A stretch of DNA of 64,000 nucleotides from Eggerthellaceae bacterium UBA3686 (GCA_002371495.1 DFIX01000019.1:30207-94206); one strand, 5' to 3'. Shown: positions 2,848-58,984, counted from the stretch's first letter. Program-made: numbers and translations. The notes: generated from the letters alone by a model not told the origin.

Positions 2848-5130
2848 CTACAAATCGAAGTCGAATGCAGCACGGCCGAAGCGGGTGCGTTTCAGCTCGA
2901 GCAGATAGCCGCTCATGGCGGCATCCTGCAACCCGCTTACTGCAACGATAACCGTCTCGATATTATCAGCGTTCAGGTACCCGAAATCGGCAAGGGCTCC
3001 CATAAGGGCGCGATCGTCATGACGCGCCGTGTCAACGCAGATCTCGACTGCATGTTCGCGCAAGGTCCGCTCGAAAAGCGACCGGTTGACGCCTGTCAGC
3101 AAAATGGGGTCTTTGAAGCGCTCGACAATTAACCGAGCCTGCTCGTAGGCCGTCACGCCATCGCCTTTGCGAGCAGTGTAATCATGGGCGTTTGCCAGGC
3201 AGTTGTCGAAGTGCTTCATCATATCGGGCACGTTCACCCAACTCGACCCGCCGAGCGCCAAGCTGATCTCATGAATCGACCGGGCCGTGTCGGGAAACCT
3301 GAACTCGAAGACGGTCCTCCCCTCGAGCGGTTTTTTCAATTCGACCTTGATATGCTCGATGAAAGACCATGTAAGGAGCCCCGACGAACCGATGGTCTTG
3401 AGATTGGGCCCTAGATAAATTGACTTGATGTTACGGCAGTTGCTGAAAGCATACGATTCGATGTGCTTCACGCGCTCGGGTATGGCGACGTCTTCTACCG
3501 AATTGTCGAACAGAATCGCTCGATCGCCGTCCTCGCCCCGCTCGCACAGGATACCCGATTCAACGTAAAAGCGCGTATTAGCCGGGTCAGCAGAGATCTT
3601 CGCAATCGAGGGCGGCTCGACCAGGCGATGTGCACCTGCGGTGACAAATGCGTCGGCTCCTATGCTCTGCAGGGCAGCCGGAATGAAGAGCTCGGTCAGC
3701 GACGAGTCAATAAATGCCTCTTTGCCAATAGCCCTCAACGTCGACGGAAAGGTGACCGAGCGCAGCTTTCTGCAGACCCTGAAAGCGCTGTCGCCAATCT
3801 GCTCGACGCCTTCCGGAACCTCGACTTCCTCTATCGTTTCGTGAAATGCGAAAGCATACGATTCAACGACATGCGTCCCATCAACAATCTTGAACGCAGC
3901 GACAGTCGGATCAATCAGCTGCACGAATCGCAAGTATTCACCGTCTTGTTTGTAGAGTCCACCGTTTCCATCGTAGAAATACAGCGGGTTCTGGCTCGAT
4001 ACCGCAAACGTTGCACCTTCGCCCGTGTATACAACGTTGGTGTTCTGAACGATGCAGTTCCCTATAAAGCGCACCGAAGCAGGCACCACAATTCCTTCGA
4101 GCCCCGAACCGGCAAATGCATAGGCGGCGATACTCTCTAGGCCCGCGTTCAACGTAACGTGAGAAAGCTCCTTGCAATGAAAAAACGAGCGCTCACCAAT
4201 GGTCTTAAGCGAACATCCGCATTCGAGCCTCTTCAAGCCGGTATGCGCGAACGCGTAGTCTTCGAGCACCTCCAAAGAGTCAGGCATTACCACCTGTTCG
4301 AGTTTCAGGACGCCCATACACGCTTTCTTCGCGACCCGCTTGCATCCATTTTGAATTATCAATTTCTTGACCGGACGGGCAAGCGCTATGAGGGTCTTTC
4401 CGTCTTTTGCGTAAAGCGCATCGCCATCGCAATCGATAAATGGATTGTCAGCAGCTACCTCAATGACCTTGAGCTGTGTCTTTTCAAATGCGCCCGGGAG
4501 CACGTTCTTTACGTTTTTGCCGATGATTAGCGTCTGCAAAGAGGGATTCTCGAATACTTCGCCGGTAATCTTCTCGAGCATGCCGGGCAATACGATGGTC
4601 TTGATCTTTGGACACTGCGACAGCCACGTGGCCGAGAATTCGACGACGTCTTTCGGAAAACGGACGTACTCGAGATTCTCATTCATCCTAAAGGCGCACA
4701 GCCCGATTGTTTTAACGCTGTCAGGACATATTATTCGCCGCACCGACCCAAGCTCCGCACATGCATCAGCGCTAATAGCATACACAGGCAGGCCTTCGAT
4801 GCTGCTAGGAATCTCGAGCGTCTCTTCAGCTGTCCTGCAACGCGTGATTCTGACCATGCTTTGGTCGACGATTCTGTAAGTCCATACCGTCTTATCGCCA
4901 CAAGAATAGGTATACGGCTTTGACGAGCGCGCATATTCGAGGTCTCGCAGCCGCTTTGCTTCAGCTTGCTTGCGCTTATACTCGATTTCCATGCGTTCAA
5001 GCTGCTCTTTCGAAGCAGTCACTCCGTCCATTGCGGTCGGCGAAAAACCACCGAACGTAACAGCCAATGTTGCTATCGCAGAAACGCCATCGCCTATAGC
5101 CAAAATACCCTCGCTATAATCGTTAAGCAA
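2848..5130 (-). CDS. BspA-type leucine-rich-repeat protein with no recognisable signal peptide and a helical C-terminal domain
   Basis: 760-aa ORF with repeated ~23-aa LRR_5-like units (e.g. VEVPEGVEQIGDSAFRVCRKLRSVTFPSTLRAIGKEAF). An N-terminal coiled-coil-like stretch reads KEQLERMEIEYKRKQAEAKRL. The track start is TTG and the true start is uncertain. Sample lines are only 47-50% GC. Confidence 0.75.
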   Translation of the reverse strand: MLNDYSEGILAIGDGVSAIATLAVTFGGFSPTAMDGVTASKEQLERMEIEYKRKQAEAKRLRDLEYARSSKPYTYSCGDKTVWTYRIVDQSMVRITRCRTAEETLEIPSSIEGLPVYAISADACAELGSVRRIICPDSVKTIGLCAFRMNENLEYVRFPKDVVEFSATWLSQCPKIKTIVLPGMLEKITGEVFENPSLQTLIIGKNVKNVLPGAFEKTQLKVIEVAADNPFIDCDGDALYAKDGKTLIALARPVKKLIIQNGCKRVAKKACMGVLKLEQVVMPDSLEVLEDYAFAHTGLKRLECGCSLKTIGERSFFHCKELSHVTLNAGLESIAAYAFAGSGLEGIVVPASVRFIGNCIVQNTNVVYTGEGATFAVSSQNPLYFYDGNGGLYKQDGEYLRFVQLIDPTVAAFKIVDGTHVVESYAFAFHETIEEVEVPEGVEQIGDSAFRVCRKLRSVTFPSTLRAIGKEAFIDSSLTELFIPAALQSIGADAFVTAGAHRLVEPPSIAKISADPANTRFYVESGILCERGEDGDRAILFDNSVEDVAIPERVKHIESYAFSNCRNIKSIYLGPNLKTIGSSGLLTWSFIEHIKVELKKPLEGRTVFEFRFPDTARSIHEISLALGGSSWVNVPDMMKHFDNCLANAHDYTARKGDGVTAYEQARLIVERFKDPILLTGVNRSLFERTLREHAVEICVDTARHDDRALMGALADFGYLNADNIETVIVAVSGLQDAAMSGYLLELKRTRFGRAAFDFDL

Positions 5131-9749: not shown

Positions 9750-10078
9750 CGTGTCGTCTCCTTCTATTTAATAGCCAATGAGCATACGCTAGCTTAGGCG
9801 AAATCGAACCGATTGTCCATGCAACAAAAAAGGCCGCGATGCGACCTAATAGTCCGGTGGGGTCGAAAGCAAAGCATTCGACCCCACAAAGGACTTACTA
9901 CTATGCGCAACTTTCGTCGCATTTGCACCTTAAGGCAAGTGCTGCCTCGATCTGGCCAGATCATTTTGTGCTCGTCAGTGGATGCCCGCTACATCCGCCC
10001 CTACCAAATGGCTAGGTACCCTGACGAACAGCCAAGTGTTCCCCTATAAGCACCTGACTTGCACTCGAAATACCGAGC

Positions 10079-10333
10079 TTACGCGCCGGGGGCCTTGGGG
10101 GCGCCGGGGGCCTTGGGGGCGCCAGGAGCGCCGGGGGCCTTGGGGGCGCCAGGAGCGCCAGCTGCAGGAGCCGCGCCGGGCAGAGGCTTCTCGCCGTTCA
10201 GGTACGGGGTGAAGTCTTCCTTGCAGAACGGGCACTTGTCAAGCGTAATGCCCGCCATCATCTGGATGGGCTTCCCGCATCCAGGGCACTTCATCGGGCC
10301 GCCGCCGCCAGCATCAGATGGTCTAAAGCACAT
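10079..10333 (-). CDS. small zinc-ribbon protein with a C-terminal (A/G)PGAPK repeat tail
   Basis: 84 aa. ATG at 10333 has AAGGAGG 7 nt upstream. CPGCG...CPFC forms a four-Cys ribbon. The tail reads GAAPAAGAPGAPKAPGAPGAPKAPGAPKAPGA. Confidence 0.6.
   Translation of the reverse strand: MCFRPSDAGGGGPMKCPGCGKPIQMMAGITLDKCPFCKEDFTPYLNGEKPLPGAAPAAGAPGAPKAPGAPGAPKAPGAPKAPGA
10083..10160. repeat. imperfect 18/27-nt tandem repeat encoding the PGAPK tail
   Basis: GCGCCGGGGGCCTTGGGG occurs at 10083-10100 and 10101-10118. A 27-nt variant with a GCGCCAGGA insertion follows. Confidence 0.8.
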
Positions 10334-10568
10334 AAGATTCCTCCTTCATCGGATTTGCTCGAACGAAAAAGACATCGCTCGGGCCTTACTGCGCCACGCG
10401 CCCTGCCCCATTCCAGAGCGTTATGACTTGCTCACATTATAATCAACTTGCAACTATTTTTGCGCGGAACTTTCGCCCCTGTCGGTCAGATGAACGCCAA
10501 AGGCGCCCGAAACCATGCCTTGCTGAGGTTTCGAAGCCTCTGCCCTAGCGGCGTTTGCGCCTACTATA

Positions 10569-13117: not shown

Positions 13118-13459
13118 ATGGCAAAGATATCCAAAAAGCAACGCTCTGCACTCAGGCAAATTGACGCGCTGGAGGCTAAGCGCAAGCGCGAAATGATACT
13201 GGGACTCGTATCCATCGTCGTCATGGCCGGGCTCATCATCTTATACAACCTGTTTACATATCAACTCGGCATCATCGACCCAGGAAACCAGGTACTTCGC
13301 GCCATCTTGTACACTATCGCCATGGTAATAGCCGGCTACTGCGGCATTATGTTCATGCGCGGTTCGAAGAAGAAACGCGAAATAGACGGCCTACGCCAAA
13401 GTACCGGAATATCGCGCGAGACACTCGAGGCCTGGAAACGCGGAGAGTACAACGAATAG
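13118..13459 (+). CDS. small two-TM membrane protein, hypothetical
   Basis: 113 aa with two hydrophobic stretches (ILGLVSIVVMAGLIILYNLF and AILYTIAMVIAGYCGIMFM) between basic termini. Confidence 0.6.
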   Translation: MAKISKKQRSALRQIDALEAKRKREMILGLVSIVVMAGLIILYNLFTYQLGIIDPGNQVLRAILYTIAMVIAGYCGIMFMRGSKKKREIDGLRQSTGISRETLEAWKRGEYNE

Positions 13460-13584: not shown

Positions 13585-14193
13585 TTATCGTCCTTGCTGG
13601 CGCGCCTCTTCTTCGGCATCTTTCATGGCGAGGATCTCCTCGTAGGTGATGCCCTTGTTGGTGAAGATGCGCCTCTTCCATTTCTCGAGGCCCGTGTACT
13701 CTATGGGTTCGCCTTCGCTTTTTCCCTTGTAGCTTTCCTTAATGGCCATTGCGATTACGCAGCATGCGGCAATGCGTAGCTTCGAGATGTCTTTCACCTT
13801 TATTTCGAGGCAGTGACCGTGGTCGCGGAATTTGACACGCCCAATGCGGACGTCGAGCTTGCCCGTGCCTTCGTTGCGGAAATCGAGCGGTGGGTCCTGA
13901 ATGGAGCCGCAGATATCCCATAGCATGCCCTTGAAGAAGTAATGCTCGAAGATCGTATACGTATGCAACTCGTATTCGTAACGTTCTACGCCCACAAAAT
14001 ACGTGAGCGTATTGGGGTCGAAGCGGATTCGCGCCATTTGCCCGCCCAGTCGGTTATAGATCTCGACGCGGTCGTTTTCCTTTGTCCACGCAGACTTCAC
14101 CGTCAGAAATACATCGCCGTCGGCATACCACAGATTGAAGTCTTCGCGCTTGTCGATAGCATCGACTTGCATGTAAACTCGGTTGTTTCTCAA
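13585..14193 (-). CDS. hypothetical 202-aa protein; possibly a LURP-one/YxjI (tubby-like) fold
   Basis: ORF with an alternating beta-strand-like pattern. WDICGSIQDPPLDFRNEGTGKLDVRIGRV...CLEIKV...LRIAACCVIAMAIKE resembles the YxjI/LOR repeat pattern from memory only. Confidence 0.5.
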   Translation of the reverse strand: MRNNRVYMQVDAIDKREDFNLWYADGDVFLTVKSAWTKENDRVEIYNRLGGQMARIRFDPNTLTYFVGVERYEYELHTYTIFEHYFFKGMLWDICGSIQDPPLDFRNEGTGKLDVRIGRVKFRDHGHCLEIKVKDISKLRIAACCVIAMAIKESYKGKSEGEPIEYTGLEKWKRRIFTNKGITYEEILAMKDAEEEARQQGR

Positions 14194-14302: not shown

Positions 14303-15034
14303 TTAGCGCCTGAGTATTACGTAGGCGTTAAGAGCACCGTCGCGACCATCGGCTTCGTAGCGCTCGACCAGCTCGAAATCGTTTGCAACCTCGGCTATGA
14401 GCGCATCGACTTCCTGCACGGTAAAATGATGACAGTAACGCAGGGCGTCGGGGTCGTCTTGCCATCCGAGCAGGTAATCGCCCTCATCAAGCACGGCATC
14501 AATTTTGACGCGGGCGCGCTCGGTGGTCTTCTTGGCCTTGGAGGCGAGCTTGCGGTCGTTCATGAACTGCCAAAACGACAAGCACAAGTATCCGGCGGGC
14601 TTGACCTGCGCACACATCTGCCGCAGGAGCTCGGCGCGCAACTCGTAGCTCGGAACATGGTGCATGAACCCGAAAGCTATCACCAAATCGCATTCGGGCA
14701 CGCTGTTCTCGGCGAAAACGTTTCGATCGCGCATAAGCGCTTCTATGATGTCGGCCTCGATCAGGTTGGCGCCGAGCGAGTCGTCCCAAAGCTCGGGGCA
14801 TGAGTCTACGCAATAACAAAGCGGCACTGAATCTGGATTCGAATCGGCGAGGAAACGCTCGAATCGGAGATTTCCGCAGGCAACGTCAAGGACGGACCCC
14901 GGCGTTTCCGAAATGGCGACCAGATGCTCCCAGCCTGGCCAGGGAACCGTGCGCGTCGCCGAGAAAGAGACCGCATTCTGAGCATAGAAACGCCGGTTGA
15001 TTTCGTTGAGTTCTCGCGCTGATCGAATATCCAT
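14303..15034 (-). CDS. class I SAM-dependent methyltransferase, Trm9/ALKBH8-MTase-like
   Basis: 244 aa from ATG 15034 (track ORF to 15109). INRRFYAQNAVSFSATRTVPWPGWEHLVAISETPGSVLDVACGNLRF matches the Trm9 N-terminal pattern (Y..IA..FS.TR...WP.V..FL...P.GS...D.GCGNGKY). Divergent from the Elp3 gene. Confidence 0.75.
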   Translation of the reverse strand: MDIRSARELNEINRRFYAQNAVSFSATRTVPWPGWEHLVAISETPGSVLDVACGNLRFERFLADSNPDSVPLCYCVDSCPELWDDSLGANLIEADIIEALMRDRNVFAENSVPECDLVIAFGFMHHVPSYELRAELLRQMCAQVKPAGYLCLSFWQFMNDRKLASKAKKTTERARVKIDAVLDEGDYLLGWQDDPDALRYCHHFTVQEVDALIAEVANDFELVERYEADGRDGALNAYVILRR

Positions 15035-15123
15035 GCATCTATTGTATAGCATGCAATTGCGCAAAAGCGTCGAGATGGACTTATTCGGCGCTGTGAAGGC
15101 AAGCAGCACTGCCGATACCGCAT

Positions 15124-16953
15124 TTGGTTTACCATGACATCATGCAACAAGTGATAACGCAAATACTCGACGAGCTCAGGGCCGGCCATACGCTCGACGC
15201 CACGCAAATCGACTCACTTCTGCGCGCGCGTGCGCGCGGCGTGCCAGACGGACGCAAAGCATTCGCCAAGAAGCGGATTCTCCCCTACTACCTGCACGTC
15301 AGGCATTGTGAGCCCGAACTGTTCGAAAGCTGGAACGTCGACGAGCACCTCGACGAGCTGTTCGTAAAGACGATGCAGATGAAGCCCCGCAGGACGGCGT
15401 CAGGCGTTGCCACGATAACGGCCATTACCAAACCGTGGCCCTGTTCGAGCAATTGCATCTACTGCCCGAACGACATCCGCATGCCCAAGAGCTACCTGCA
15501 CGACGAGCCAGCCTGTCAACGGGCCGAGCGCAACTTCTTCGATCCGTACCTGCAGGTCTCGGCGCGTCTTCATGCGCTCGAGCACATGGGACATGCGACC
15601 GACAAAGTCGAGCTCATCGTGCTCGGCGGCACGTGGAGCGATTATGCCCCGGCGTATCGCATATGGTTCGTTCAGAACCTCTTTAGGGCACTAAACGATT
15701 CGCGGGACGAACGCGAGACGCACACACAAATGCTGAAAGCGCGTTACGGCGAGCTCGGGCTCGAAAGCGACCCCGAAGCGCTCAAACACAGGTCCGAGAC
15801 TTGGCAAAAGCGAATTGATGTTGGCGAGATCGACTACAACGAGGCTTTCGACCAACTCTACCGGCAAAGCGCCGCGTGGCGGCGAGCGAGCGAATCGCAA
15901 GTCAGTACGCTCGAGAAATTACAGCACCAGCACGCCTTGAACGAAAACGCCGAGCACCGCGTGGTCGGCTTGGTGGTCGAGACGCGCCCCGACGCCGTGA
16001 CCTGCGAACTGCTGCTAGAACTGCGCCAAATCGGCTGCACCAAGGTCCAGTTGGGCATACAGTCGCTCGATGACGCAATCTTGATGGCCAACGGGCGCCG
16101 CTGCGACGCATCAGCTGCCGAGCGCGCGCTTGGGCTCTGCCGGCTCTTCGGCTTCAAGACCCACGTCCATTTCATGCTGAACCTTTACGGCAGCACGCCC
16201 GAGTCCGACATCGCCGATTACCGGCGACTCGTGAGCGAACCGGGGTTGCTCCCCGACGAGGTGAAGCTCTATCCCTGTGCCCTCGTTGCGGGAACGAAGC
16301 TCGTAGCTTTTCACCAAAGCGGCGCCTGGCAACCATACAGCGAAGACGAGCTGATTTCGGTACTGTGCGCCGATATGGTCGCCACGCCGGCTTACATGCG
16401 CGTCTCACGCATGATACGCGACATTTCGGCCAAAGATATCCTGGTAGGGAACAAAAAGACGAATCTGCGGCAGCTCGTCGAACAGCAGCTCGCCGAAACG
16501 GGCGCTCAGGTGCGCGAGATACGCTACCGCGAAATCGGGACGCGCGATGTTGACCCAACCAAGCTCGAACTCTCGCAAATCGAGTACGAAACCGATCTGA
16601 CAAGCGAGCGTTTCCTTCAGTGGGTGACGCCAGAGGGGCGCATCGCGGGGTTCTTGCGGTTGTCGTTGCCCCATGCGGGCGCATTGGACCGCCTTGGACC
16701 AACGGCACCGCTCCACGAGGGCGAAGCCATGATTCGCGAGGTCCACGTGTACGGCTTTGCCGCCAAAATCGCCAAAGAGGGCACCTCGGCCCAGCACCAC
16801 GGACTCGGAAAAACGCTCGTTGCCACAGCATGCGACATCGCACGCGAACACGGCTACAATCGCATGAACGTAATCAGCGCCGTCGGAACACGCGGCTACT
16901 ACCGCAACCTCGGCTTCGAAGAAGCAGGCCTCTACCAACAAAAGAAGCTGTAA
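15124..16953 (+). CDS. elp3: Elp3-family radical-SAM / GNAT acetyltransferase (tRNA U34 cm5 modification enzyme homologue)
   Basis: KPRRTASGVATITAITKPWPCSSNCIYCP carries the Elp3-type Cx4Cx2C motif. The C-terminal GNAT block reads IREVHVYG...HHGLGKTLVATACDIAREHGYNRMNVISAVGTRGYYRNLGF. The track start is TTG 15124; the first ATG is at 15142. Confidence 0.85.
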   Translation: MVYHDIMQQVITQILDELRAGHTLDATQIDSLLRARARGVPDGRKAFAKKRILPYYLHVRHCEPELFESWNVDEHLDELFVKTMQMKPRRTASGVATITAITKPWPCSSNCIYCPNDIRMPKSYLHDEPACQRAERNFFDPYLQVSARLHALEHMGHATDKVELIVLGGTWSDYAPAYRIWFVQNLFRALNDSRDERETHTQMLKARYGELGLESDPEALKHRSETWQKRIDVGEIDYNEAFDQLYRQSAAWRRASESQVSTLEKLQHQHALNENAEHRVVGLVVETRPDAVTCELLLELRQIGCTKVQLGIQSLDDAILMANGRRCDASAAERALGLCRLFGFKTHVHFMLNLYGSTPESDIADYRRLVSEPGLLPDEVKLYPCALVAGTKLVAFHQSGAWQPYSEDELISVLCADMVATPAYMRVSRMIRDISAKDILVGNKKTNLRQLVEQQLAETGAQVREIRYREIGTRDVDPTKLELSQIEYETDLTSERFLQWVTPEGRIAGFLRLSLPHAGALDRLGPTAPLHEGEAMIREVHVYGFAAKIAKEGTSAQHHGLGKTLVATACDIAREHGYNRMNVISAVGTRGYYRNLGFEEAGLYQQKKL

Positions 16954-17428: not shown

Positions 17429-18028
17429 CTACAGCGCTTGCTTGATGGCAGCCAGCAGATCGTCGAACTCCTCGAATGCCGCAAGCTCGGGGTGCTCGGC
17501 GCGAATGGCGTCGGTGCTGCGGAACAGGAAGCCTGCCTTCGACGCCAGGATCATGCCCAGATCGTTGTGGCTGTCGCCTGCGGCGATGGTTTCGAATCCC
17601 ATAGCCTGCAGCCCCTTGACCGTCGTGAGCTTCGACTGCTCGCAGCGCATATGGTAGCCGGTAATCGTGCCGTCATCGGCAACTTCGAGCGAGTTGCAGA
17701 ACAACGTCGGCCAGCCGAGCTTCTTCATGAGCGGCTGCGCGAACTGCTCGAAGGTGTCGGAAAGGATGATGGCCTGCGTAGTGGCGCGCAGCTCGTCGAG
17801 GAACTCGCGAGCGCCCGGCAACGGGTCGATCGTCGCGATGACTTCCTGAATCTGCGGAAGACCCAAGCCGTGTTCGTGCAGAATGCCCAGGCGAAACTTC
17901 ATCAGCTTGTCGTAATCGGGCTCGTCGCGCGTCGTGCGCCGCAGCTCGGGTATGCCCGTGGCCTCGGAAAAGGCTATCCAAATCTCGGGTACCAACACGC
18001 CTTCCATATCGAGACACACGATGTTCAC
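17429..18028 (-). CDS. thrH: phosphoserine phosphatase / homoserine phosphotransferase (HAD family, ThrH type)
   Basis: MNIVCLDMEGVLVPEIWIAFSEATGI...ILSDTF...AAGDSHND is closely collinear with Pseudomonas ThrH as I remember it. Confidence 0.8.
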   Translation of the reverse strand: MNIVCLDMEGVLVPEIWIAFSEATGIPELRRTTRDEPDYDKLMKFRLGILHEHGLGLPQIQEVIATIDPLPGAREFLDELRATTQAIILSDTFEQFAQPLMKKLGWPTLFCNSLEVADDGTITGYHMRCEQSKLTTVKGLQAMGFETIAAGDSHNDLGMILASKAGFLFRSTDAIRAEHPELAAFEEFDDLLAAIKQAL

Positions 18029-18157: not shown

Positions 18158-18577
18158 ATGTACGGATTGCAGACCGAAGCAGCATTTGATTCCGCCCATT
18201 TCCTCACCGATTACTACGGCAAGTGCGAGAACCTCCACGGTCACCGCTGGCGCGTCGTCGTCGACCTCGCGCAACCCGAGCTTCAGACCGAGGGAACCAT
18301 GAAAGACATGGTGCTCGATTTCGGCGTCTTCAAGAAGGCCGTGCGGGCAGAAGCAGACCTCCTCGACCACACTTTCCTCGTTGAAGAGGGCTCTCTTAAA
18401 CCCGAGACGATCGCCTGCCTTGAATCCGAGGGTTTTAGCCTGACGGTGCTGCCTTTCCGCACCACGGCCGAAAACCTCGCCCGCTACCTCTTCGACCGCT
18501 TGACCGACCAAGGGTTGCCCATCGCTCAGGTCGAAGTTGACGAAACCCCCAACAACCGCGCCTTTTACCGCGCATAA
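18158..18577 (+). CDS. queD: 6-carboxy-5,6,7,8-tetrahydropterin synthase
   Basis: 139 aa. AAFDSAHFLTDYYGKCENLHGHRWRV contains the PTPS/QueD Cys and His-x-His zinc motif. Confidence 0.85.
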   Translation: MYGLQTEAAFDSAHFLTDYYGKCENLHGHRWRVVVDLAQPELQTEGTMKDMVLDFGVFKKAVRAEADLLDHTFLVEEGSLKPETIACLESEGFSLTVLPFRTTAENLARYLFDRLTDQGLPIAQVEVDETPNNRAFYRA

Positions 18578-49751: not shown

Positions 49752-50579
49752 CTACCGGATCTTGAAATTTTTCTGGTACATGCCCGTGTAGCCGCCCCAG
49801 GTGGCATTACGGTATCCGTAGACCGCGACGTTCCACTTGTTCTTCGTTGGGTAGCTATAGGTCGAGCGCTTGGCCGACGTTACCGAGTAGGTCTTCTTGC
49901 CCTTCTTGACCTTGAACTTCTTGCCGTTGATCCAGATGAACTTGGTCTTGGGCAGCTTCTTGAACGTAACGGTCGTCTTTACCTTGTAGGTGTAGAAGTT
50001 CACCGAGCCCCAGTAGATGACGTAGCCAAACACGTGCTGTTTGTGCTTCTTGACGTTTATGGCCTTGACCTTGACTGACTTGATGGCGGGTTTGCCCTTG
50101 GGACCGGTCTTGAAGGTGAAGGTCTTGGAATAGCCGCTGCGCGTCGTGAAGTTGTACAGATACAGCCCGTTTGCGTTGGGCTCGTAGTAAAGACGCGCTA
50201 CATACGTCTTGTTCGGCTTCAGGCCCTTGATCCTGTAACCATTGCTTTCTTGCAGGTTCATCCAGCCCGAAGTCTTCCATTTGGTGCTGCCCTTGGCCCG
50301 ATACTCCATGTACAAGACGCAACCGCCTTTATAGGCAGGAGTCGGATCGAAGTCGAGGTACGTCGAGTAGACCTGGTACATCGACGCCTTGTTAACCGGC
50401 ACGGCGTCGATCTGGCCTGGCGTAAGGCTCTGAGCCATCAGCATGCCACTCGAGGCGGAACCGCTTTCGGCAGCGTAGGCAGCGGTACCCGAAAGCGATA
50501 CCAGGGCAGCGCTTGCAGCCAGCGTCAGAATCAAGACGAGAACCTTCTGCGTAAGGCCCAGTTTTACGGTCTTGCCCAT
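49752..50579 (-). CDS. secreted Lys-rich protein with an FN3-like domain, hypothetical
   Basis: ATG 50579 is preceded by GGGGAGC (track ORF to 50714). Signal peptide [29 protein letters not shown]3-like [43 protein letters not shown]. Confidence 0.7.
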
Positions 50580-51009
50580 GGTTGCTCCCCTTTCCCGCCT
50601 TTTCGGCGCGAAACGGATGATCCGCCCGCATCCGAAGCGGCGCCTCGCCACGCGCCATACGTCTGCAATTCGTGGAATGCCAACGTCAACTATACCCGAA
50701 TTCGTCCGCGTCAATGGCGTAACTCAGTTGTCAGTTCGTCAACTTTTGGCTCTTCAGCATGACATGTTGGCAAGTGCATGTTGGACAAGCATTCGTCAGC
50801 CGGTGCTCCCACGATGCGCGCACATTATGCGGAAACGGTCAACGTCCGCGAAACCGCAGCACACGATGGTAGAATCGCCGTATGAAATCGATGCGTACAA
50901 CGTTCTATTAGCGCACAGCGCCCAGGGCGCTTCTTTTCGTGCGCCCGATTCCCAACGCCGCAATACGCATCTAATCCCTTTCCCACAACCATATATGGAG
51001 GAACCAACC

Positions 51010-52092
51010 ATGGCAGATACCAGCATGCGCGACAAGCTCGAGAAGATCATCGAAGCCTATGAGGAACTGCAGGCCAAGATGGGCGACCCGGCCGTGCTCG
51101 CCGACCAGAAGGAATACAACCGCCTTGCCAAGGAGTACGCCAACCAGGGCCCGCTCGTCAAGCAGGCGCGCATCTACGTGCAGGACGAGGACGACCTTGC
51201 CGAGGCGAAGGAAATGCTCGACGACCCCGACATGAAGGAGTTCGCGCAGGAAGAGATCGCCCGCATCGAGGCCGAGCTTCCCGGCATCGAGGAAGAGATC
51301 AAGTTCATGCTGATCCCGGCCGACCCCGCCGACGAAAAGGACATCATCGTCGAAATCCGCGGCGGTGCGGGCGGCGACGAGGCCAAGATCTTCGCAGGCG
51401 ACCTGTTCAAGATGTACGAGCGTTTCGCCGCCGAGCACAAGTGGAAGATCGAGCTGCTCGACGTCATGCCCTCCGAAGCTGGCGGCTACTCCGAAATATC
51501 GTTCAAGGTCAAGGGCGACAAGGTCTATTCGCTCATGAAGTTCGAATCGGGCGTGCACCGCGTGCAGCGCGTCCCCAAGACCGAGAGCCAGGGACGTATC
51601 CACACTTCCACCGCCACGGTGGCAGTCCTGCCCGAGGCCGACGAGGTCGAAGTCGAAATCAAGAACGAGGACCTGCGCATCGACGTGTACCGCGCCGGCG
51701 GCCCGGGCGGCCAGTGCGTCAACACCACCGACTCGGCCGTGCGCATCACGCACCTGCCCACCGGGCTCGTCGTGCAGTCGCAGGACCAAAAGTCGCAGCT
51801 GCAGAACAAGATCGCGGCCATGGCCGTCCTGCGTGCCCGCCTGTACGAGAAGATGCTTGCCGAGCAGCGCGAGGCAGAAGGCGCCGAACGTCGCGCGCAG
51901 GTCGGCACCGGCGACCGCTCCGAGAAGATCCGTACCTACAACGGCCCGCAGGACCGCGTGACCGACCACCGCATCGGCTACAACGGCACCTACAACGGTG
52001 TACTGCTCGGCTCGGGCGGCGCCGGCCTCGGCGAGCTGATCACGGCGCTGCAGGCCGCCGACCGTGCCAAGAAGCTCGAGCAGGCGGTGTAG
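51010..52092 (+). CDS. prfA: peptide chain release factor 1
   Basis: ATG 51010 is preceded by GGAGG. PKT tripeptide in [14 protein letters not shown] and GGQ motif in [19 protein letters not shown]. Confidence 0.95.
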
Positions 52093-52185: not shown

Positions 52186-53316
52186 ATGGCCGACGAAACT
52201 TGGACTGTCAAGCGGATTCTCGAGTGGGTCGAGGGTTACCTTGCGCAGCACGGCGACGAGAGCCCGCGCGTATCGGCGCAATGGCTCGTCGGCGAGGCGC
52301 TCGGAGTGTCGCGTATGCAGCTGTTCCTGGATGCAGAGCGCCCGCTGACCCAAGACGAGCGCGCGGTTCTGCGCGATTGGACGCGCCGGCGCGGCGCGGG
52401 CGAGCCGCTGCAGTACATCACCGGCGAGACGGCTTTCCGCCACATCACGGTCAAGGTGCGCAAGGGGGTCCTCATTCCCCGGCCCGAAACCGAGGTCCTG
52501 GTAAGCGAAGCGCTGTCGCTTCTGCCAGCAGCGCCCAAGCCCCAAGATGCTCACGACGATGCGCTTCTGGCCCTTGCTGAGCGGCTCACGGCGGAGCGCA
52601 GTTCCGAAGAGAACGACGAAACCACAGGGATCGGAGCCGTCAGCAACGACGCTCATAGCGAAGCGGTCTCCGACGGCGCCGGCGGTACGAGCCCTGATTC
52701 GCCTGGCAACGGCGCGCATGGCACTGAATATGGCGAAGGCTTCATTGCTTCCAGCGCAGATTCCGATGCTGCTAATTCCGCCCAAAAAGCTGAAAGGTCG
52801 CAGCTGACCGTGGTCGACCTTTGCACGGGAACCGGCTGCATTGCGTGCTCGATTGCCTACGAGCATCCGCTGACGCACGTGTACGCGACCGACATCGCAT
52901 CCGAAGCTGTAGCGCTGGCGCACGAGAACGTGTGCGCCCTCGACTTGCAGGATCGCGTCGAAGTGCTGGAGTGTGACCTCGGCTCGGGCGTTCCCCAGGA
53001 TGCGCTTGGCAGCATCGACCTGGTCATCTCGAACCCGCCCTACGTGCCGACCGAGGTCATGGGCCGCATCCCCTCGGAAGTCGCCCACTTCGAGCCCGCG
53101 CTCGCGCTCGACGGCGGTCCCGACGGACTCGACGTGTTCCGCAGGATCCTTGCCTGGAGCGCCGAGGCACTCGCCCCTGGCGGCGCCTTGGCCGTCGAGC
53201 TCCACGAGACCTGCCTCGACCAGGCTGCCGAGCTCGCGCGCGAGGCCGGCTTTGCCGACGTGCGCATTGCCCGCGACCTCGCCGACCGACCCCGCATCCT
53301 TACCGCCCGCAAATAG
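52186..53316 (+). CDS. prmC: release-factor glutamine N5-methyltransferase with a ~90-aa low-complexity insertion
   Basis: EPLQYITGETAFR, VDLCTGTGCIA and NPPY (DLVISNPPYVP). Immediately downstream of prfA. Confidence 0.9.
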   Translation: MADETWTVKRILEWVEGYLAQHGDESPRVSAQWLVGEALGVSRMQLFLDAERPLTQDERAVLRDWTRRRGAGEPLQYITGETAFRHITVKVRKGVLIPRPETEVLVSEALSLLPAAPKPQDAHDDALLALAERLTAERSSEENDETTGIGAVSNDAHSEAVSDGAGGTSPDSPGNGAHGTEYGEGFIASSADSDAANSAQKAERSQLTVVDLCTGTGCIACSIAYEHPLTHVYATDIASEAVALAHENVCALDLQDRVEVLECDLGSGVPQDALGSIDLVISNPPYVPTEVMGRIPSEVAHFEPALALDGGPDGLDVFRRILAWSAEALAPGGALAVELHETCLDQAAELAREAGFADVRIARDLADRPRILTARK

Positions 53317-53341: not shown

Positions 53342-56300
53342 TCAGCGTACGCTTACCTTCACTTTCTTGTACACGCCGTTATGGGCGTAGGCGTACACGT
53401 AGCAGGCGCCTCGTCCGACGCCCCTGATCTTGCCCTCGCCGTTGACGCTCGCCACCGAGGCGTTGGTGCTCAGGTAGCGCAGCGTGGCGGCATGCGCCTC
53501 GGACATGAGCTCCTTGCGCTTGTCGAGCTTGACGACACGCGCCTTCAGCTGGAACGTGCGGCCTTTCGCAAGCGATATGCTGGTCCTGTTCACCGAAACG
53601 CCCTTTGCGTTGGTGCAGTACCTGGTGCTGCCAGAGGTGTAGGCATGCACGAGGGAGCTTGTTTTCACGTAGACCTTCTTAGTTCCCACGATGACGTAGG
53701 CCCTCACACGTGCCTTGTAAGCCGTGCCGGCCCTGAAGCCCGCCTTCTTCCACGAAAGCGTAGAGCCGGCCTTCACGGTTGCGACCTTCTTGGGATACAG
53801 CACCTTGCCGTCGTGGTTGCACCGCGAGAGCATGACGTCATAGCCGTCGGCTCCGGCGACCTCGTTCCAGCTTATGGCCAGGCCGCGATTGCCCCGGGCT
53901 TTGATCTTCGCGAGCAGCGCGGCGTACTTCCTTGCCTTCGACGCGTACGTCGCCTTGTAGGTGGTCGGTTTGGTTACCTTCTTGACAGCGGGCGCCCATC
54001 CCTTGAAGGTGTAGGCGCGAAGCGCGCTGGCGGCACGCTTCGGGGTCTTGCCCGTGTACGTGGGCATTTGCCCGTAGGCGACTTCCGCGCTTTGCAGCAC
54101 GGTGCCGTCGTAGTTGACGAACTTCACCGTGTACTTGTTCACGGTCTCGGCGAACAGCGGCCGGTAGGTCGTGACCGAGCCCTCCACGATGCCGCCGTCC
54201 CAGCCGGCGAACTTGTAGGAGTACTTCACCGTGGCATGTTTAACAGGAGTTTTCCCATCGTAGGCGGGAGGCTTCTGTCCTTCGACGTAGGTTTTCTCCT
54301 GCAGCAAGGTCCCGTCGCCGTCGAGCCACCTTACGGTGGGAATCCCCTTGATGGCAAAGTCGCCCTTGGCCACGGCCACATCGTAGTTTTTATTGGCAAC
54401 GTACACGGCATCGAGCACGCCTCTGTAGGTGCCGGGCGCTTCGTCGCTGTTCGTGCGGACGTAGCGGACCTCGCCCAGGTCGCCTTCGGCCACGAGCCCC
54501 TCCACCGAGCCAGTGAAGGCCGGGTCGGCCGTGCCTTGGACTTTTGAAGCGCTATTAACCGTGATCGTGGCTTTGGCTGCCCCGATCGTGAGCGCGCCCG
54601 GCACGTAGACGATGGCGTAGTCGTCCTCCACTCTGCTCGAGCCTCTCGTAACGGCGGCATTGCCCGCAGTCAGATCGTAGCTGCCGACATCCTTCCCCTG
54701 GCCGTTGAGCACGACGCTCACGAGCACGTCTCCTTCCCGCAAGCCCTCGACCTTGACCTTTTCGGCAATCTCGGCTGGATCTTCGTAGACCGTGTCACCC
54801 TCTCCCTGGGTTTGTCCGTTGTAGGTGAAAGGCTGCGGCAAGGCCGTTATCGTGAGCCGGGGCTTGGGCGAGACGTGCGCAAAGATGTCGGCCTTGTCCT
54901 GTACGCAAATCATTTGCTTTGCTGCGGACGGGTCGGGGTCCCAGACCGGCTTCACCCCGACGGCGGTGTAGCCATCGAAGCGGTAGCCCTCGGCAACGGT
55001 TGTCTTTATATTCAGGTAGCCGCCGTCGCGTGCGATCACCGTGTTGGGCGCGCCCGCAACCGGTTCTCCACCGCTGAGCTCGACGTCGTTGAAATCGGCA
55101 TAGGCGGGATCCTTCGTCAGGCTGACGGTGCAGAAGTCGAACACGGCAGTGGCCGCGTTCTCCTTCCCGTAATTGATGTACGCGGCGGCTTTCGGATACC
55201 CGGGCGAGGCAAACTGAAGCATGTAGTCACCCTGAGGAAGCTGTCCCGGTCCCGTTCCCGGTGCGGATGCGTACGATGGGTCGAAGACGTATATGCCATG
55301 CTTGTATTCGATAGGAACCGAAAACGTCGCGCCGTCCTGAACCAGCGTGAAACAATCCTTCAAGTCCTCCTGCGGCGCGCCGTCCTTCGTCACCGTGACG
55401 ACGATCTGGCCGTTGTACACCCACTCAGCGGTTATGACCGAGTTGGCTACGTTCCCGTCAGCGTCGGGCGCGCCGCACAGGTTGCAGTACTCCTCGCCGT
55501 CCTCGTAGAACGATCCGAACCCGGTGCCGAACCACCCGTGCAACGTCATCCCGCCGGAATCCCAGCCGAAATCGCTGTCGGAATAAGGATAGAGCCTGAC
55601 GGGTCGGTCGAAGTACGCCGTCTGGATGTGCTTCTGACTCCCCGCATCGTCCGACCAGTACTCGATCGTGTAGGGCTTCCCCCACCACTGCGCGTAGAGC
55701 GTCACCGCACCGCCGTCCTTTGTCAGGCCCTGCACCTCTTCCTTGTCGGCGTAAGGCGTCCCCGTGCCGTCCGCCTTGGAGTTCCAGCCCGTGAACTCAT
55801 ACCCGGGCAGGAAGTATCCGTTCGTGCTGAGCGCCTTCGTCTCGTCGTAGGCAAAGCTCTGATCCTCCATGGTCCCCGAACACGCCGTGGACGCGCTCGC
55901 CGGCACGTTGGCGTCGAAGCACACGGAGTAGTTGGGGTTCTTGATGGTGAAATCGCCCTTGACCACGCTCACGTCGTAATTCGGATTGGCGGCGTACACG
56001 GCGTCGAGCACGCCTCTGTAGGTGCCTTGCGCCTCGTCATCGTTCGTGCGGACGTAGCGGACCTCGCCCAGATCGCCCACGTCCACGAGCCCCTCCGCCG
56101 TGCCGGTAAAGATTGGGTCTGGCTCGCCCTGGGCTTTGGAAGCGCTCTCGACCGTGATGGTCGCCAGCTTCGGCGTTATCCGAAACTCCACTGGGCACGT
56201 GCCCATACAACCGGGCCCGATGCCCGTCACCGTACCGTGCGCCGTGCCCACATTCCTGTTGTCCTGCCATGTAACCGTGTAGTCCCTGCCCTGCACAAGC

Positions 56301-58984
56301 TGGGCTTCGCCCACCGACACCTTCAGCGCAGGCGCGATATCCGCACCCGTGAACGTTTGATCGGATACCGCCTCTACCGTAGCCTGGGAGATGTCAGCCT
56401 GAACGATCTTGAAGCTGGCCTCCTTCGAGCCCGTAAGCCACGCGCAGTCTTTCACGGGCGTGAGCGTCATCGTGGCCGCGCCCACGTCCGTGTTGTTCTC
56501 ATACCCATCTGAATCGACCTTGTAGTCCACGCCCAAGTCGAGCGGCACGGTATATTCCTTGCCGCCGCGGTCGAGCAGCATCACCTCGCTGGGAACCGGC
56601 GTCACCGCTTGGCCCGTATACACCTGGTCGGGTACTTTCACCTGCGTTTTATCCAGATCGGCTGGTTTGATGGTAAACGTGAAGGTCTTCTTGCCCTGGA
56701 AGTTGCCCTTGCCCTCTATCGTGATCGTCGCCTTATCGCTCGCCATCTTGTTGTGCTCGTATCCGGCGATCGTGTAATCCCGGTCCTTTATGAGATTGTA
56801 TATATGACCGCTGTTGTCCGGCACGTCTTGCAGGAAGTCATATGCTCCGAGCCGTGCATAGAAACCGGGATCGGGTTCCCAATTCCTGTTGTCCCAGACG
56901 CAGGCAGGCGAGATATCCATCATCTGCACGCCGTCCATGTTCGACTTGACGATTTCGTATTCGATGATCCGGTACCCCGTGAAATAGGGGGCGTTGCCTG
57001 TCACCACGACCTTCTGCGTACCCACCGACGTGCAGTCATAACCCAGCAACGGCTCTACCGTGAGATTGCCGTCCTCGCCCCCGACAGGATCGGTCCTCAA
57101 CCAACGCGTAGCGGTCACTTCGGGGATGGCCTGCTCGCCGGTCCAGTTCTCGACGGCACTCCAGTTCAGCTTGACGTCGTTTGCCTCCTTGGTATGCGTT
57201 GCCTCGTCGCCGATGGCGACCGGCACGTATTCCCGGTCGCTTGCGGGAAGCGCTATGGGATAGAACTGCGGATCGCCGAGGATATGGGGCTCGAACCAGG
57301 AGTAATCCGCGGTCGACCCGTACGTGACCTTGAACTTGAACGTGTCTCTGGCCTGGTTGACTATCCATCGTTCAAAGAAATCGCTATCCGAGGGAGGCTT
57401 GAAGGCACCGCTCGAATTCGGCATCCGCATGGCCTTGATGGCCATGTGCTTGCCGTGATCGCAGCTGAATGCCTGCGCATCGATGTTTTGCAGCGAGTCG
57501 GACAGATTCACGGTTTCGAGCTTGAGGCAGTTGTAGAAAGCGTGGTGCCCAATGGTCGTAACGCCTTCGGGCAACGTTACCTCCGTCAAGCTCGTGCACC
57601 CGCTGAACGCTTCGCTTTCGATGGTGCTGAGCGATGTCGTGTTGAAGCTGACGCTCGAAAGCGAAGTGCACCCCTTGAACGCGCTCGAGCAAAGCTCTTT
57701 CACGCTGGCTGGAAACTCTATTTTCTTCAGGGCAGTACATCCCTTGAAGGCCTCGCTGCCGATGTGGTTGATTTTCGTATCGCTCGGAAACCTCACCTCG
57801 GTGAGCAACGTTTTGTCCAGAGCGGCAAAGTCGGCTATTCTCGTGACCGAGCGATACCCTATTTTCGCGGGCACCGTCACGGCCCTGTGCTTGGACGAGG
57901 GGACGATGCGGTTGATCGCGATGGCATCGCCGCCCTGGGTGACGAAATAGGTCATATACGCCATGCCCTTCGTCCAGCCGGCGTATTTCATGTCGGACTC
58001 GGACGGGTCGACGCCTGCATCATGTGTGGGAAAGATCATCAACTCGAGGGCGCTGCAGCCTTCGAACACATCGGATTTCTGCACTTGCGGGAGCGCCTTG
58101 CCATAGACCACGACCTTGAGCGACGTGCAGTTCGCAAACGCCTTATCGCCGATCGCGCCAACATGGTCGGGCAAACACACTTCTTCGAGAGCGGCGCACC
58201 CGTCAAAGGCGTGCAAGCTTATGATCGAGATGTCCGAACCCCTGAACCGAAGGGAGGCGACGCTCTTGCAGTTAGAGAACGCGTACAACCCTATCCACTG
58301 CAAGGAAGCCGGCAGCTCGAGGCTCTCGAGCGATTCGCAGTTCAGAAACGCGTTGATCCCGATGTGGTCCAGCTTGCTGGCCGGCGGGATGTTGGCTTGT
58401 TTGAGGCTTGTGCAATCGGCGAACGCGTCGTTCCCGATCGTTCCGACGCTCGCGGGGATATCCACCGCTTCGAGCGCCGTGCAACCCTGGAAGCAAGACG
58501 TCGGGATCACGCCGAGCTCCTCCACTGCCGTGAGGTCCACGTACGTCAGGCTCGTGCAGTTCTCGAACGCATTTTCGCCCAGGCTAACCACCGACGAGGG
58601 GAAGGTCACTTTGGTAATCTGCGTATTGCCCTTGAAGACCTCGTTGGCGACTCCTCCCACGCGATGGCCGTCTATGGTCTCGGGAATGTTTATTTGGGTG
58701 ACGCCGTCTTTTAGGGCGTAGCCGGTAATGGTGGCATCTCCGGACAGGTCCTCTACGTAGGTCCACGTCACGTCCGGATCGGCCGCGGCCGCTATCCGCC
58801 CCGTCGTCAAGGGAGGTTCCGCTGCCGCAGCAGTCAGCCTAAGCGCCGGTGCGCCAAGCGCGAGCAGCACTAAGAGCACCATGCCAACGATGGCCAGCAG
58901 AAACCGGCTACCGCCTCGCGGGAGGCGAGCTGGCGCTTCGGCTCCGTTTCTCTTTGCTGGGCACAGGACAAACAACGTGCTCAT
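53342..58984 (-). CDS. giant (1880-aa) cell-surface protein: signal/anchor, BspA-type LRRs, MBG domains, Listeria-Bacteroides (Flg_new) repeats, FN3, C-terminal Big_2
   Basis: N-terminal hydrophobic segment FLLAIVGMVLLVLLALGAPAL. Many LRR_5 units (e.g. IPASVGTIGNDAFADCTSLKQANI). Two MBG-like units (...GEVRYVRTN(D/S)DEA.GTYRGVLDAVY.AN.NYDV...). Flg_new-like units (GYEFTGWNSKADGTGTPY...VTLYAQW). Big_2-like end (VSVNRTSISLAKGRTFQLKARV...). No LPxTG. Confidence 0.85.
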   Translation of the reverse strand: MSTLFVLCPAKRNGAEAPARLPRGGSRFLLAIVGMVLLVLLALGAPALRLTAAAAEPPLTTGRIAAAADPDVTWTYVEDLSGDATITGYALKDGVTQINIPETIDGHRVGGVANEVFKGNTQITKVTFPSSVVSLGENAFENCTSLTYVDLTAVEELGVIPTSCFQGCTALEAVDIPASVGTIGNDAFADCTSLKQANIPPASKLDHIGINAFLNCESLESLELPASLQWIGLYAFSNCKSVASLRFRGSDISIISLHAFDGCAALEEVCLPDHVGAIGDKAFANCTSLKVVVYGKALPQVQKSDVFEGCSALELMIFPTHDAGVDPSESDMKYAGWTKGMAYMTYFVTQGGDAIAINRIVPSSKHRAVTVPAKIGYRSVTRIADFAALDKTLLTEVRFPSDTKINHIGSEAFKGCTALKKIEFPASVKELCSSAFKGCTSLSSVSFNTTSLSTIESEAFSGCTSLTEVTLPEGVTTIGHHAFYNCLKLETVNLSDSLQNIDAQAFSCDHGKHMAIKAMRMPNSSGAFKPPSDSDFFERWIVNQARDTFKFKVTYGSTADYSWFEPHILGDPQFYPIALPASDREYVPVAIGDEATHTKEANDVKLNWSAVENWTGEQAIPEVTATRWLRTDPVGGEDGNLTVEPLLGYDCTSVGTQKVVVTGNAPYFTGYRIIEYEIVKSNMDGVQMMDISPACVWDNRNWEPDPGFYARLGAYDFLQDVPDNSGHIYNLIKDRDYTIAGYEHNKMASDKATITIEGKGNFQGKKTFTFTIKPADLDKTQVKVPDQVYTGQAVTPVPSEVMLLDRGGKEYTVPLDLGVDYKVDSDGYENNTDVGAATMTLTPVKDCAWLTGSKEASFKIVQADISQATVEAVSDQTFTGADIAPALKVSVGEAQLVQGRDYTVTWQDNRNVGTAHGTVTGIGPGCMGTCPVEFRITPKLATITVESASKAQGEPDPIFTGTAEGLVDVGDLGEVRYVRTNDDEAQGTYRGVLDAVYAANPNYDVSVVKGDFTIKNPNYSVCFDANVPASASTACSGTMEDQSFAYDETKALSTNGYFLPGYEFTGWNSKADGTGTPYADKEEVQGLTKDGGAVTLYAQWWGKPYTIEYWSDDAGSQKHIQTAYFDRPVRLYPYSDSDFGWDSGGMTLHGWFGTGFGSFYEDGEEYCNLCGAPDADGNVANSVITAEWVYNGQIVVTVTKDGAPQEDLKDCFTLVQDGATFSVPIEYKHGIYVFDPSYASAPGTGPGQLPQGDYMLQFASPGYPKAAAYINYGKENAATAVFDFCTVSLTKDPAYADFNDVELSGGEPVAGAPNTVIARDGGYLNIKTTVAEGYRFDGYTAVGVKPVWDPDPSAAKQMICVQDKADIFAHVSPKPRLTITALPQPFTYNGQTQGEGDTVYEDPAEIAEKVKVEGLREGDVLVSVVLNGQGKDVGSYDLTAGNAAVTRGSSRVEDDYAIVYVPGALTIGAAKATITVNSASKVQGTADPAFTGSVEGLVAEGDLGEVRYVRTNSDEAPGTYRGVLDAVYVANKNYDVAVAKGDFAIKGIPTVRWLDGDGTLLQEKTYVEGQKPPAYDGKTPVKHATVKYSYKFAGWDGGIVEGSVTTYRPLFAETVNKYTVKFVNYDGTVLQSAEVAYGQMPTYTGKTPKRAASALRAYTFKGWAPAVKKVTKPTTYKATYASKARKYAALLAKIKARGNRGLAISWNEVAGADGYDVMLSRCNHDGKVLYPKKVATVKAGSTLSWKKAGFRAGTAYKARVRAYVIVGTKKVYVKTSSLVHAYTSGSTRYCTNAKGVSVNRTSISLAKGRTFQLKARVVKLDKRKELMSEAHAATLRYLSTNASVASVNGEGKIRGVGRGACYVYAYAHNGVYKKVKVSVR

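Follow-up and report, generated by a model that had tools for sequence, protein, structure and literature searches.

Does the divergent gene pair at positions 14303–16953 of this stretch encode a eukaryote- or archaea-style route to a modified wobble uridine (U34) in tRNA? The stretch, hereafter the window, comprises 64,000 nucleotides from Eggerthellaceae bacterium UBA3686 (GCA_002371495.1 DFIX01000019.1:30207-94206), chromosomal DNA of ~58–60% G+C whose host belongs to the class Coriobacteriia. One gene encodes a homologue of Elp3, a radical S-adenosylmethionine (SAM) protein, and the other a class I SAM-dependent methyltransferase. A reading made from the sequence alone (the sequence-only reading) had interpreted them as an Elp3–Trm9 pair, an interpretation now supported by profile matches, active-site residues and recurrent linkage. 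We put at about 0.7 the probability that, as predicted from these comparisons, Elp3 makes 5-carboxymethyluridine (cm5U34) and the Trm9-like enzyme methylates it to 5-methoxycarbonylmethyluridine (mcm5U). The locus is laid out as follows:

14303..15034, minus strand: Trm9-like class I SAM methyltransferase, 243 amino acids (aa); generic Pfam matches, family hidden Markov model (HMM), hhalign, AlphaFold2 (AF2) model and Elp3 linkage
15035..15141, no strand: divergent intergenic region, 107 bp, from the sequence; both promoters presumed inside
15142..16953, plus strand: Elp3 gene, radical-SAM plus GNAT, homologue of tRNA U34 carboxymethyl synthase, 603 aa from ATG; TIGR01211, Pfam and PDB 5l7j

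The observation of divergent Elp3 and methyltransferase genes is confirmed. They had been placed ~90–110 bp apart, and the measured gap is 107 bp (89 bp if Elp3 starts at an in-frame upstream TTG); the strings quoted in the sequence-only reading, RTASGVA...KPWPCSSNCIYCP, FSATRTVPWPGW and PGSVLDVACGN, all occur in the translations. The Elp3 open reading frame (ORF; 609 codons) spans 15124 to 16953 on the plus strand and yields 609 aa from the TTG at 15124. The ATG at 15142 is the start used by gene callers and by homologues beginning MxQ(I/V), and the 603-aa product matches a public protein exactly. The methyltransferase ORF (268 codons) occupies 14303–15109 on the minus strand; we assigned its start to the ATG at 15034 (MDIRS...) because that is where homologues begin (MD..TA...) and because translation from it gives the same 243 aa as public protein P0001. 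Close relatives of both proteins all come from Coriobacteriales, Eggerthellaceae, Collinsella, Slackia, Senegalimassilia or similar taxa. The intergenic region presumably carries the promoters of both genes; a strict sigma-70 consensus scan of it gave no promoter match, and a search near the pair for tRNA genes, Rfam elements and consensus promoters found none.

The plus-strand protein scores 392 bits on TIGR01211 (cut-off 350; model positions 38–522 of 522), and its best solved relative is the crystallised Elp3 of Dehalococcoides mccartyi (DmcElp3; 5l7j, E 5e-81). With these values the Elp3 call, first made in the sequence-only reading, is not a chance pattern. Further solved relatives are M. 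infernus Elp3 and yeast, mouse or human Elp3, and the Pfam domains are Radical_SAM, Radical_SAM_C and Acetyltransf_1. The parts of the protein that matter below, all on the plus strand and in 609-aa numbering where residues are given, are:

15142..15381, plus strand: N-terminal extension of ~80 aa, basic-rich, ahead of the KPRRTASGV core; the 5l7j alignment begins at query residue 87
15442..15465, plus strand: radical-SAM [4Fe-4S] motif CSSNCIYC (CX3CX2C), C107, C111 and C114; gapless alignment to DmcElp3
15700..15918, plus strand: ~73-aa insertion in the radical-SAM domain, residues 193–265, facing 5l7j chain residues 109–113 in a two-segment alignment
16495..16545, plus strand: linker without Zn-binding Cys, with V463, E465 and Y468 (VREIRYRE); alignment to DmcElp3 ...KCRCIRCRE...
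16576..16950, plus strand: GNAT/KAT domain with acetyl-CoA motif QHHGLG, E539 and Y592; PF00583 at E 3.2e-6 and DmcElp3 alignment

Window Elp3 thus shares with DmcElp3 (5L7J, 6IA6) both domains, the cluster motif and the acetyl-CoA pocket. Its C107, C111 and C114 correspond to DmcElp3 C23, C27 and C30 with the same spacing, C-SSN-C-IY-C; the Cx4Cx2C spacing proposed earlier needs correcting to the canonical CX3CX2C. The C-terminal GNAT domain foreseen from sequence lies at residues 485–598, and the DmcElp3 pocket residues singled out by Lin et al. (PMC6367351), K77, K193, E386 and Y441, are retained in the alignment as K161, K345, E539 and Y592. The two proteins differ in the ~80-aa N-terminal extension, the 73-aa insertion and the linker. 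In archaeal Elp3 a basic extended N-terminus is important for tRNA binding, and the linker of bacterial and archaeal Elp3 carries three Zn-binding Cys (PMC6367351); their positions are filled by V463, E465 and Y468 in window Elp3, so the triad is not present. The Zn triad is a subgroup trait and not family-defining (PMC6367351). We read two other Coriobacteriia Elp3s, from Collinsella and Senegalimassilia (loci L083 and L026), and both share the extension and the insertion and likewise have no Zn site.

For the partner, Pfam returns only the generic Methyltransf_23/25/11, the Pfam and NCBIfam scans give no Trm9-specific family match, and NCBI labels the homologues “class I SAM-dependent methyltransferase” only. 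The NCBIfam scan made no CmoA, CmoM, UbiE or UbiG assignment either; its sole match is trans-aconitate methyltransferase, at 16.7 bits versus a cut-off of 320. We built a family HMM from a 35-sequence alignment of the methyltransferase family (A1) and searched 177,635 PDB sequences with it. The top match is Y. lipolytica Trm9 (5cm2_Z, E 1.7e-5), with a lead of only ~2 bits (27.5 versus 25.2 for the best non-Trm9 chain). UbiG scores below Trm9 in that search (20 bits, E 0.003), and none of the matches up to E 1 bears the name CmoA or CmoM. We rejected a CmoA/CmoM/UbiE/UbiG-type identity, given the missing equivalog model match and the rank of UbiG. Searching the PDB by phmmer with the single sequence told us little: spurious tyrosine phosphatases came out on top, and Trm9 stood at E 0.21. 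In an exhaustive representative search, the family numbers at least 1,618 clusters at 50% identity; the 150 matches listed are all core members, with no distant relatives in view.

A Saccharomyces cerevisiae Trm9 (ScTrm9) sequence was checked in two ways (residue numbers agree with Letoquart et al. wherever comparable, and it matches 5cm2_Z at E 4e-71) before being used to retrieve source-named yeast Trm9 proteins, 20 of which were aligned as A2. In hhalign, the A1–A2 match has a probability of 98.4% and an E of 9e-15, and it spans 217 columns between the N-terminal helix and the final strand. Against a single Trm9 sequence A1 gives E 1.3e-12; the single-sequence controls gave E 0.038 (PrmC from the window) and E 0.27 (an FtsJ-type methyltransferase from Slackia). 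The A1 HMM gives full-length yeast Trm9s 29–42 bits (HMMER), versus 25 for the best non-Trm9 PDB chain. The AF2 model (pLDDT 94.8) has a Rossmann-type strand order. Trm9 coming first in the PDB, the A1–A2 match and the active-site residues described next all bear on whether the enzyme falls in with unrelated small-molecule methyltransferases, and no such grouping was seen.

Alanine mutants of eight ScTrm9 residues, R29, D72, H116, W145, W168, R241, Y243 and N271, give zymocin resistance with abolished or strongly reduced activity (Letoquart et al., PMC4678810). Seven of these align to R28, D77, H126, W155, W191, R199 and N236 in the window methyltransferase, positions at which 262–264 of 264 family members have the same residue. 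For ScTrm9 it has been proposed that R29 and H116 position the cm5U carboxylate, that H115 and N271 read the uracil (N271 at O2 and N3 of U34), that W145 stacks on the uracil and that Y18 and F25 cover SAM (PMC4678810). The corresponding elements in the window, all on the minus strand, are:

14327..14329, minus strand: N236, equivalent to ScTrm9 N271; alignment, 262 of 264 family members, role per PMC4678810
14429..14464, minus strand: beta-hairpin W191...R199-Y200-C201-H202, equivalent to ScTrm9 W168...R241-Y242-Y243-H244; alignment, AF2 strands 186–191 and 194–202
14657..14662, minus strand: HH dyad H125-H126, equivalent to ScTrm9 H115-H116; alignment, proposed uracil- and carboxylate-positioning role from PMC4678810
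14930..14965, minus strand: N-terminal Trm9 signature FSATRTVPWPGW, with F24, R28 and W32 equivalent to ScTrm9 F25, R29 and W33; aligned to yeast HFSQTRYKPWP

By both hhalign and MAFFT, Y17, F24, R28 and P31-W32-P33 align to the Trm9 N-terminal helix (Y18, F25, R29, PWP), and Y17, F24, R28 and W32 are each kept in 264 of 264 family members, in line with the Trm9/ALKBH8 signature that the sequence-only reading had seen in this N-terminus. Motif I (LDVACGN) is present together with D77, the acidic residue ending beta2 (ScTrm9 D72), itself found in 264 of 264. When the Coriobacteriia methyltransferases were aligned with their Dehalococcoidia counterparts (described below) and short yeast Trm9s (alignment A3), the invariant columns were R28, D77, H125, H126, W155, W191, R199, Y200 and N236, along with motif I, D95, D116, G148 and E208. 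With the eukaryotic Trm9/ALKBH8 domain (5CM2, Y. lipolytica Trm9–Trm112), the window enzyme thus shares the class I SAM fold, the N-terminal helix with (H/S)FSxTRxxPWP, the HH dyad, the W of the “WALEQ” region, the W...RY(Y/C)H beta-hairpin and the C-terminal Asn. It differs from it in having Cys for Y243, in a family-specific insertion of 11–13 aa in the beta3–beta4 loop (AF2 short helices at 96–101 and 106–109) and in a helical insertion before the hairpin, between W155 and W191 (~158–180), as well as in its bacterial host. Judged residue by residue, the methyltransferase is a remote but genuine Trm9-family enzyme with what would be a Trm9 active site bearing one Tyr-to-Cys change.

Conserved gene order supports the partnership. 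Taking one genome per GTDB species, we found at least 586 methyltransferase relatives and analysed the best 80 loci, all of them from Coriobacteriia, including a few contigs in obviously mis-binned metagenome-assembled genomes (MAGs). Identity to the window proteins across these loci is 35–47% for the methyltransferase and 47–62% for Elp3. Elp3 lies ≤10 kb from the methyltransferase in 68 of the 80 species-level loci: at least 38 have the divergent and adjacent arrangement, 21 more have tblastn matches 0.4–3 kb apart, some with one or two inserted genes (the spacing in L013 and L032, among the 21, is an artefact of truncated alignments), and 9 have Elp3 at another place in the flank. Contig ends truncate 8 of the 12 negative loci. 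In an uncultured Coriobacteriaceae MAG (L068:2664-4969) the two genes share a strand and their tblastn matches are 9 bp apart, an operon-like layout. The carriers of Elp3 include Slackia heliotrinireducens, Senegalimassilia anaerobia, Collinsella tanakaei, Enorma, Olegusella, Parafannyhessea and Adlercreutzia; in S. heliotrinireducens the pair is likewise divergent, with other genes around it. The other window neighbours, namely a major facilitator superfamily transporter, two genes without family match, ThrH, QueD, CysE, NadE and one more ORF without family match, recur near the methyltransferase in only 0–15 of the 80 loci. The pair has therefore stayed together while its surroundings reshuffled.

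Several genes around the pair drew our attention in their own right. The gene downstream of the methyltransferase (13585–14193, no family match) was considered as a module member and rejected, since it recurs in only 3 of the 80 loci; also set aside were the genes that separate Elp3 from the methyltransferase in Collinsella, one for a helix-turn-helix membrane protein and one for another, uncharacterised protein, neither of which seems connected with the pathway. A QueD/6-pyruvoyl-tetrahydropterin synthase family gene lies 1.2 kb downstream of Elp3 (18158–18577, plus strand), with a ThrH-type phosphoserine phosphatase gene (17429–18028, minus strand) between them. QueD catalyses a queuosine precursor step, in another tRNA wobble modification; its nearness here is probably coincidental, as it recurs near the pair in only 4 of the 80 loci. 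The Senegalimassilia lineage has a 397-aa class V aminotransferase/cysteine desulfurase-like gene between Elp3 and the methyltransferase (L026:8641-9834, plus strand), sharing the strand of the methyltransferase and lying immediately upstream of it; the gene is also found in L016, L017, L034, L062, L043 and L047, and in L043 it stands beside the methyltransferase though no Elp3 lies within 10 kb. Its product could feed the Elp3 Fe–S cluster or a 2-thiolation yielding the 2-thio derivative mcm5s2U. A Coriobacteriia-type methyltransferase, in four cases with Elp3, also appears in bins titled Oscillibacter, Bacteroidaceae, Butyrivibrio, Prevotella and Alloprevotella (L020, L038, L047, L050, L058 and L067), most likely through binning contamination rather than horizontal transfer.

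A comparable arrangement exists outside the class. Using the DmcElp3 sequence, rebuilt from the PDB alignment, as query for Dehalococcoidia loci, we found Elp3 divergently adjacent to a methyltransferase of 216–224 aa in five of six contigs, including that of D. mccartyi, so that linkage in other Elp3-bearing bacteria is seen both there and in the 68 Coriobacteriia loci. The five count as roughly one extra observation because their wider gene order is shared. The D. mccartyi partner matches the Trm9 profile at hhalign E 2.9e-13. In the translated pair of partners, the hairpin reads LVPW...KRYYRLY (D. mccartyi) and YVPW...YRYYHLF (a relative), a VPW...RYY(H/R) motif. The DmcElp3 system is thus alike in having a divergent Trm9-like methyltransferase adjoining Elp3, but that partner belongs to another subfamily, and the eukaryote-like FSxTRxxPWP motif kept in Coriobacteriia is lost in Dehalococcoidia. 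QueH and a GNAT gene are also conserved near the Dehalococcoidia pair. Among archaea, the Elp3 and Trm9 genes cluster in Sulfolobus solfataricus (Grosjean et al., PMC2584109); there, too, a stand-alone Elp3 without Elp1, 2, 4, 5 and 6 is clustered with a Trm9-family methyltransferase (PMC2584109; PMC6144793). The archaeal Trm9, however, acts with Trm112, and we liken the systems by that reported gene clustering; it is reported in one genus, whereas the Coriobacteriia pair is conserved across a bacterial class.

How might the pair work? In a subset of tRNAs, stand-alone Elp3 would carboxymethylate C5 of U34 to cm5U, drawing on its radical-SAM cluster and on acetyl-CoA; cm5U-forming activity has been demonstrated for archaeal Elp3, and we infer it here because the catalytic residues are conserved. 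The 243-aa methyltransferase would then methyl-esterify the carboxyl group of cm5U with SAM to yield mcm5U34, or mcm5s2U34 should a thiolase act as well, with R28 and H126 predicted to position the carboxylate and N236, H125 and W155 to hold the uracil, as proposed for yeast Trm9. Homology and conserved linkage are what point to both steps. Bacterial routes with the same role, modifying C5 of U34, are MnmE/MnmG (5-carboxymethylaminomethyluridine, cmnm5U) and CmoA/CmoB/CmoM (5-methoxycarbonylmethoxyuridine, mcmo5U), whose enzymes are unrelated to the Elp3 pair and use a different chemistry; CmoM, too, methyl-esterifies the carboxyl group of a U34 side chain. With MnmE and MnmG reportedly missing from Actinobacteria, the pair may supply the 5-substituted (xm5U34) side chain in Coriobacteriia. 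No mnmE, mnmG, mnmA or thiolase gene was found among the window ORFs scanned.

Several observations weigh against a pathway to mcm5U. The relationship of the methyltransferase to Trm9 is remote (~23–26% identity), and the yeast Trm9 HMM gives the window protein 25.6 bits, below the non-Trm9 chains 1ve3 and 3ege (~35 bits). Foldseek on the AF2 model puts 3sm3, a Methanosarcina methyltransferase that is uncharacterised, first and Trm9 fifth; by target-normalised TM-score Trm9 leads the chains listed (0.72), and the method discriminates poorly among class I methyltransferases (759 matches at E ≤ 0.001). The counterpart of ScTrm9 Y243 is Cys201, in 263 of 264 family members; ScTrm9 Y243A keeps ~10% of wild-type specific activity and confers zymocin resistance, and the Dehalococcoidia partner retains Tyr at this position. 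The Coriobacteriia and Dehalococcoidia methyltransferases are only weakly alike (hhalign E 3.9e-4), and Elp3 is missing from 4 of the 80 loci despite flanks of 3 kb or more on both sides. Trm112p (PF03966) gave no match to the small or unannotated window ORFs tested (10079–10333, 13118–13459 and 13585–14193), and the searchable literature yielded no account of mcm5U in a bacterium. Because the reverse Trm9 HMM search fails to separate the family from 1ve3 and 3ege, we relied on residue conservation and on hhalign with controls. 1ve3, which scores equally well with the Trm9 HMM, is without the TR..PWP motif, the HH dyad and both Trp (its printed alignment stops before the R241 and N271 positions), and 3ege keeps SQTR and HH within the printed part of its alignment. 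On the sequences compared, the residue-level comparison is the discriminating test for Trm9 likeness.

Three rival explanations deserve consideration beside the mcm5U pathway. The methyltransferase may be tied to Elp3 and yet yield an end product other than mcm5U, by acting on another atom, on another Elp3-derived intermediate or on a sulfur-containing derivative, so that an undescribed wobble modification would result. The invariant Cys at the Y243 position would fit this, as would the two insertions in the methyltransferase, the atypical Elp3 with its 73-aa insertion and no Zn triad, and the cysteine desulfurase gene directly upstream of the methyltransferase in the Senegalimassilia lineage; moreover, the chemistry of the yeast pathway itself is not fully settled, as 5-carbamoylmethyluridine (ncm5U) is reported to accumulate in trm9 mutants (PMC3110198). 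All of the proposed carboxylate residues (R28, H126, R199) and uracil residues (H125, N236, W155) are kept, however, and the same substrate and chemistry are therefore favoured; we regard a different product as unlikely, albeit the strongest of the three rivals.

That the methyltransferase is an unrelated small-molecule or protein enzyme, adjacent to Elp3 through inherited gene order or a shared promoter region in one class, would accord with its generic Pfam and NCBIfam domains, with best Foldseek matches that are uncharacterised or natural-product methyltransferases, with a Trm9 HMM that does not single it out and with the 80 loci coming from one class and so not being independent. Such a history sits badly with a linkage that outlasts rearrangements as no other neighbour's does (68 versus 0–15 of 80), with analogous pairs in a different phylum (Dehalococcoidia) and in archaea, with the invariance of Trm9-specific residues that do not bind SAM and with control class I methyltransferases at E 0.04 or worse, and we give it little credence. 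We give still less to the idea that this Elp3 homologue does not act on tRNA and is instead an acetyltransferase for protein or another RNA, or a radical-SAM enzyme, the pair having a different target. DmcElp3 is very weakly active in vitro and in vivo evidence is lacking (PMC7663514), and window Elp3 departs from it in the Zn site and by an insertion; all catalytic residues and the basic N-terminal extension are nonetheless present, and the partner resembles a tRNA U34 methyltransferase.

Within the mcm5U pathway, the dependence of Trm9 on a second protein calls for explanation. Eukaryotic and archaeal Trm9 depend on Trm112, as with Haloferax volcanii Trm9–Trm112 (PMC6144793), and Trm112 buttresses the beta3–beta4 loop in Trm9 (PMC4678810). 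No Trm112 gene was found near the window enzyme, nor any Zn-knuckle ORF within window 12.7–18.2 kb; more speculatively, the enlarged beta3–beta4 loop may make the methyltransferase independent of Trm112. In Dehalococcoidia, a conserved gene of ~72 aa lies just beyond the Trm9-like methyltransferase (L086:3423-3650 and L089:2967-3185, both minus strand), with equivalent 70–72-aa genes in L087, L090 and L091. The L086 and L089 genes, both translated, encode a CPxC...CWKC zinc-ribbon protein that has no Trm112p Pfam match and might be a functional analogue of Trm112, itself a small Zn-knuckle protein. The window has a small zinc-ribbon ORF of its own at 10079–10333 (minus strand; CPGC...CPFC, then a Pro/Ala/Gly-rich, APGAPK-like repeat tail), with no family assignment and no Trm112p match; 10059–10442 on the plus strand overlaps it and has a similar low-complexity repeat.

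A fuller version of the mcm5U pathway can be drawn from these traits, and we hold it at somewhat short of an even chance. Coriobacteriia would make mcm5(s2)U with a Zn-less, insertion-bearing Elp3 and a self-sufficient Trm9 whose enlarged beta3–beta4 loop replaces Trm112, and a second version, diverged independently, would exist in Dehalococcoidia, where the 72-aa Zn-ribbon neighbour perhaps serves as Trm112. If true, this would mark the first case of an mcm5U pathway in Bacteria and the first of a Trm9 that does without Trm112.

Bacterial Elp3 is already known, and auto-named by NCBI, and the Elp3/Trm9 pathway is textbook knowledge for eukaryotes and has been proposed for some archaea. A 2020 review described bacterial Elp3 as restricted to Dehalococcoides, with in vivo evidence lacking (PMC7663514). 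In the searchable literature we found no report of a bacterial Trm9, of conserved pairing with Elp3 or of Coriobacteriia as Elp3 carriers. What is new here is a putative bacterial member of a known pathway, a variant in which Cys replaces Tyr243, loops carry insertions, no Trm112 is visible and Elp3 has no Zn site. Bacterial Elp3, so far a specialists’ curiosity, becomes part of the standard gene set in a large class of culturable bacteria from human and animal guts, where it comes with a dedicated Trm9-type partner. The in vivo role of bacterial Elp3, and what sits on U34 of the Lys, Glu and Gln tRNAs in these actinobacteria, become testable questions; a family with only a generic label gains an annotation, and mechanistic work gains a small, possibly partner-free Trm9.

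The remainder of the window holds features outside the pair’s neighbourhood. A 1,880-aa ORF at 53342–58984 (minus strand), with BspA-type leucine-rich repeats and MBG and Big_2 domains, is of the surface adhesin type; it is in tandem with a 1,654-aa ORF at 58988–63952 (minus strand) that has no Pfam match, and a third adhesin-like ORF with leucine-rich repeats is at 2848–5130 (minus strand). The prfA gene (RF1; 50572–52092, plus strand) is paired with prmC (52186–53316, plus strand), whose product provided the class I methyltransferase control from the window. The RF1 ORF is listed as 506 aa, with the PCRF domain beginning only at residue 161, and its true start is probably internal.

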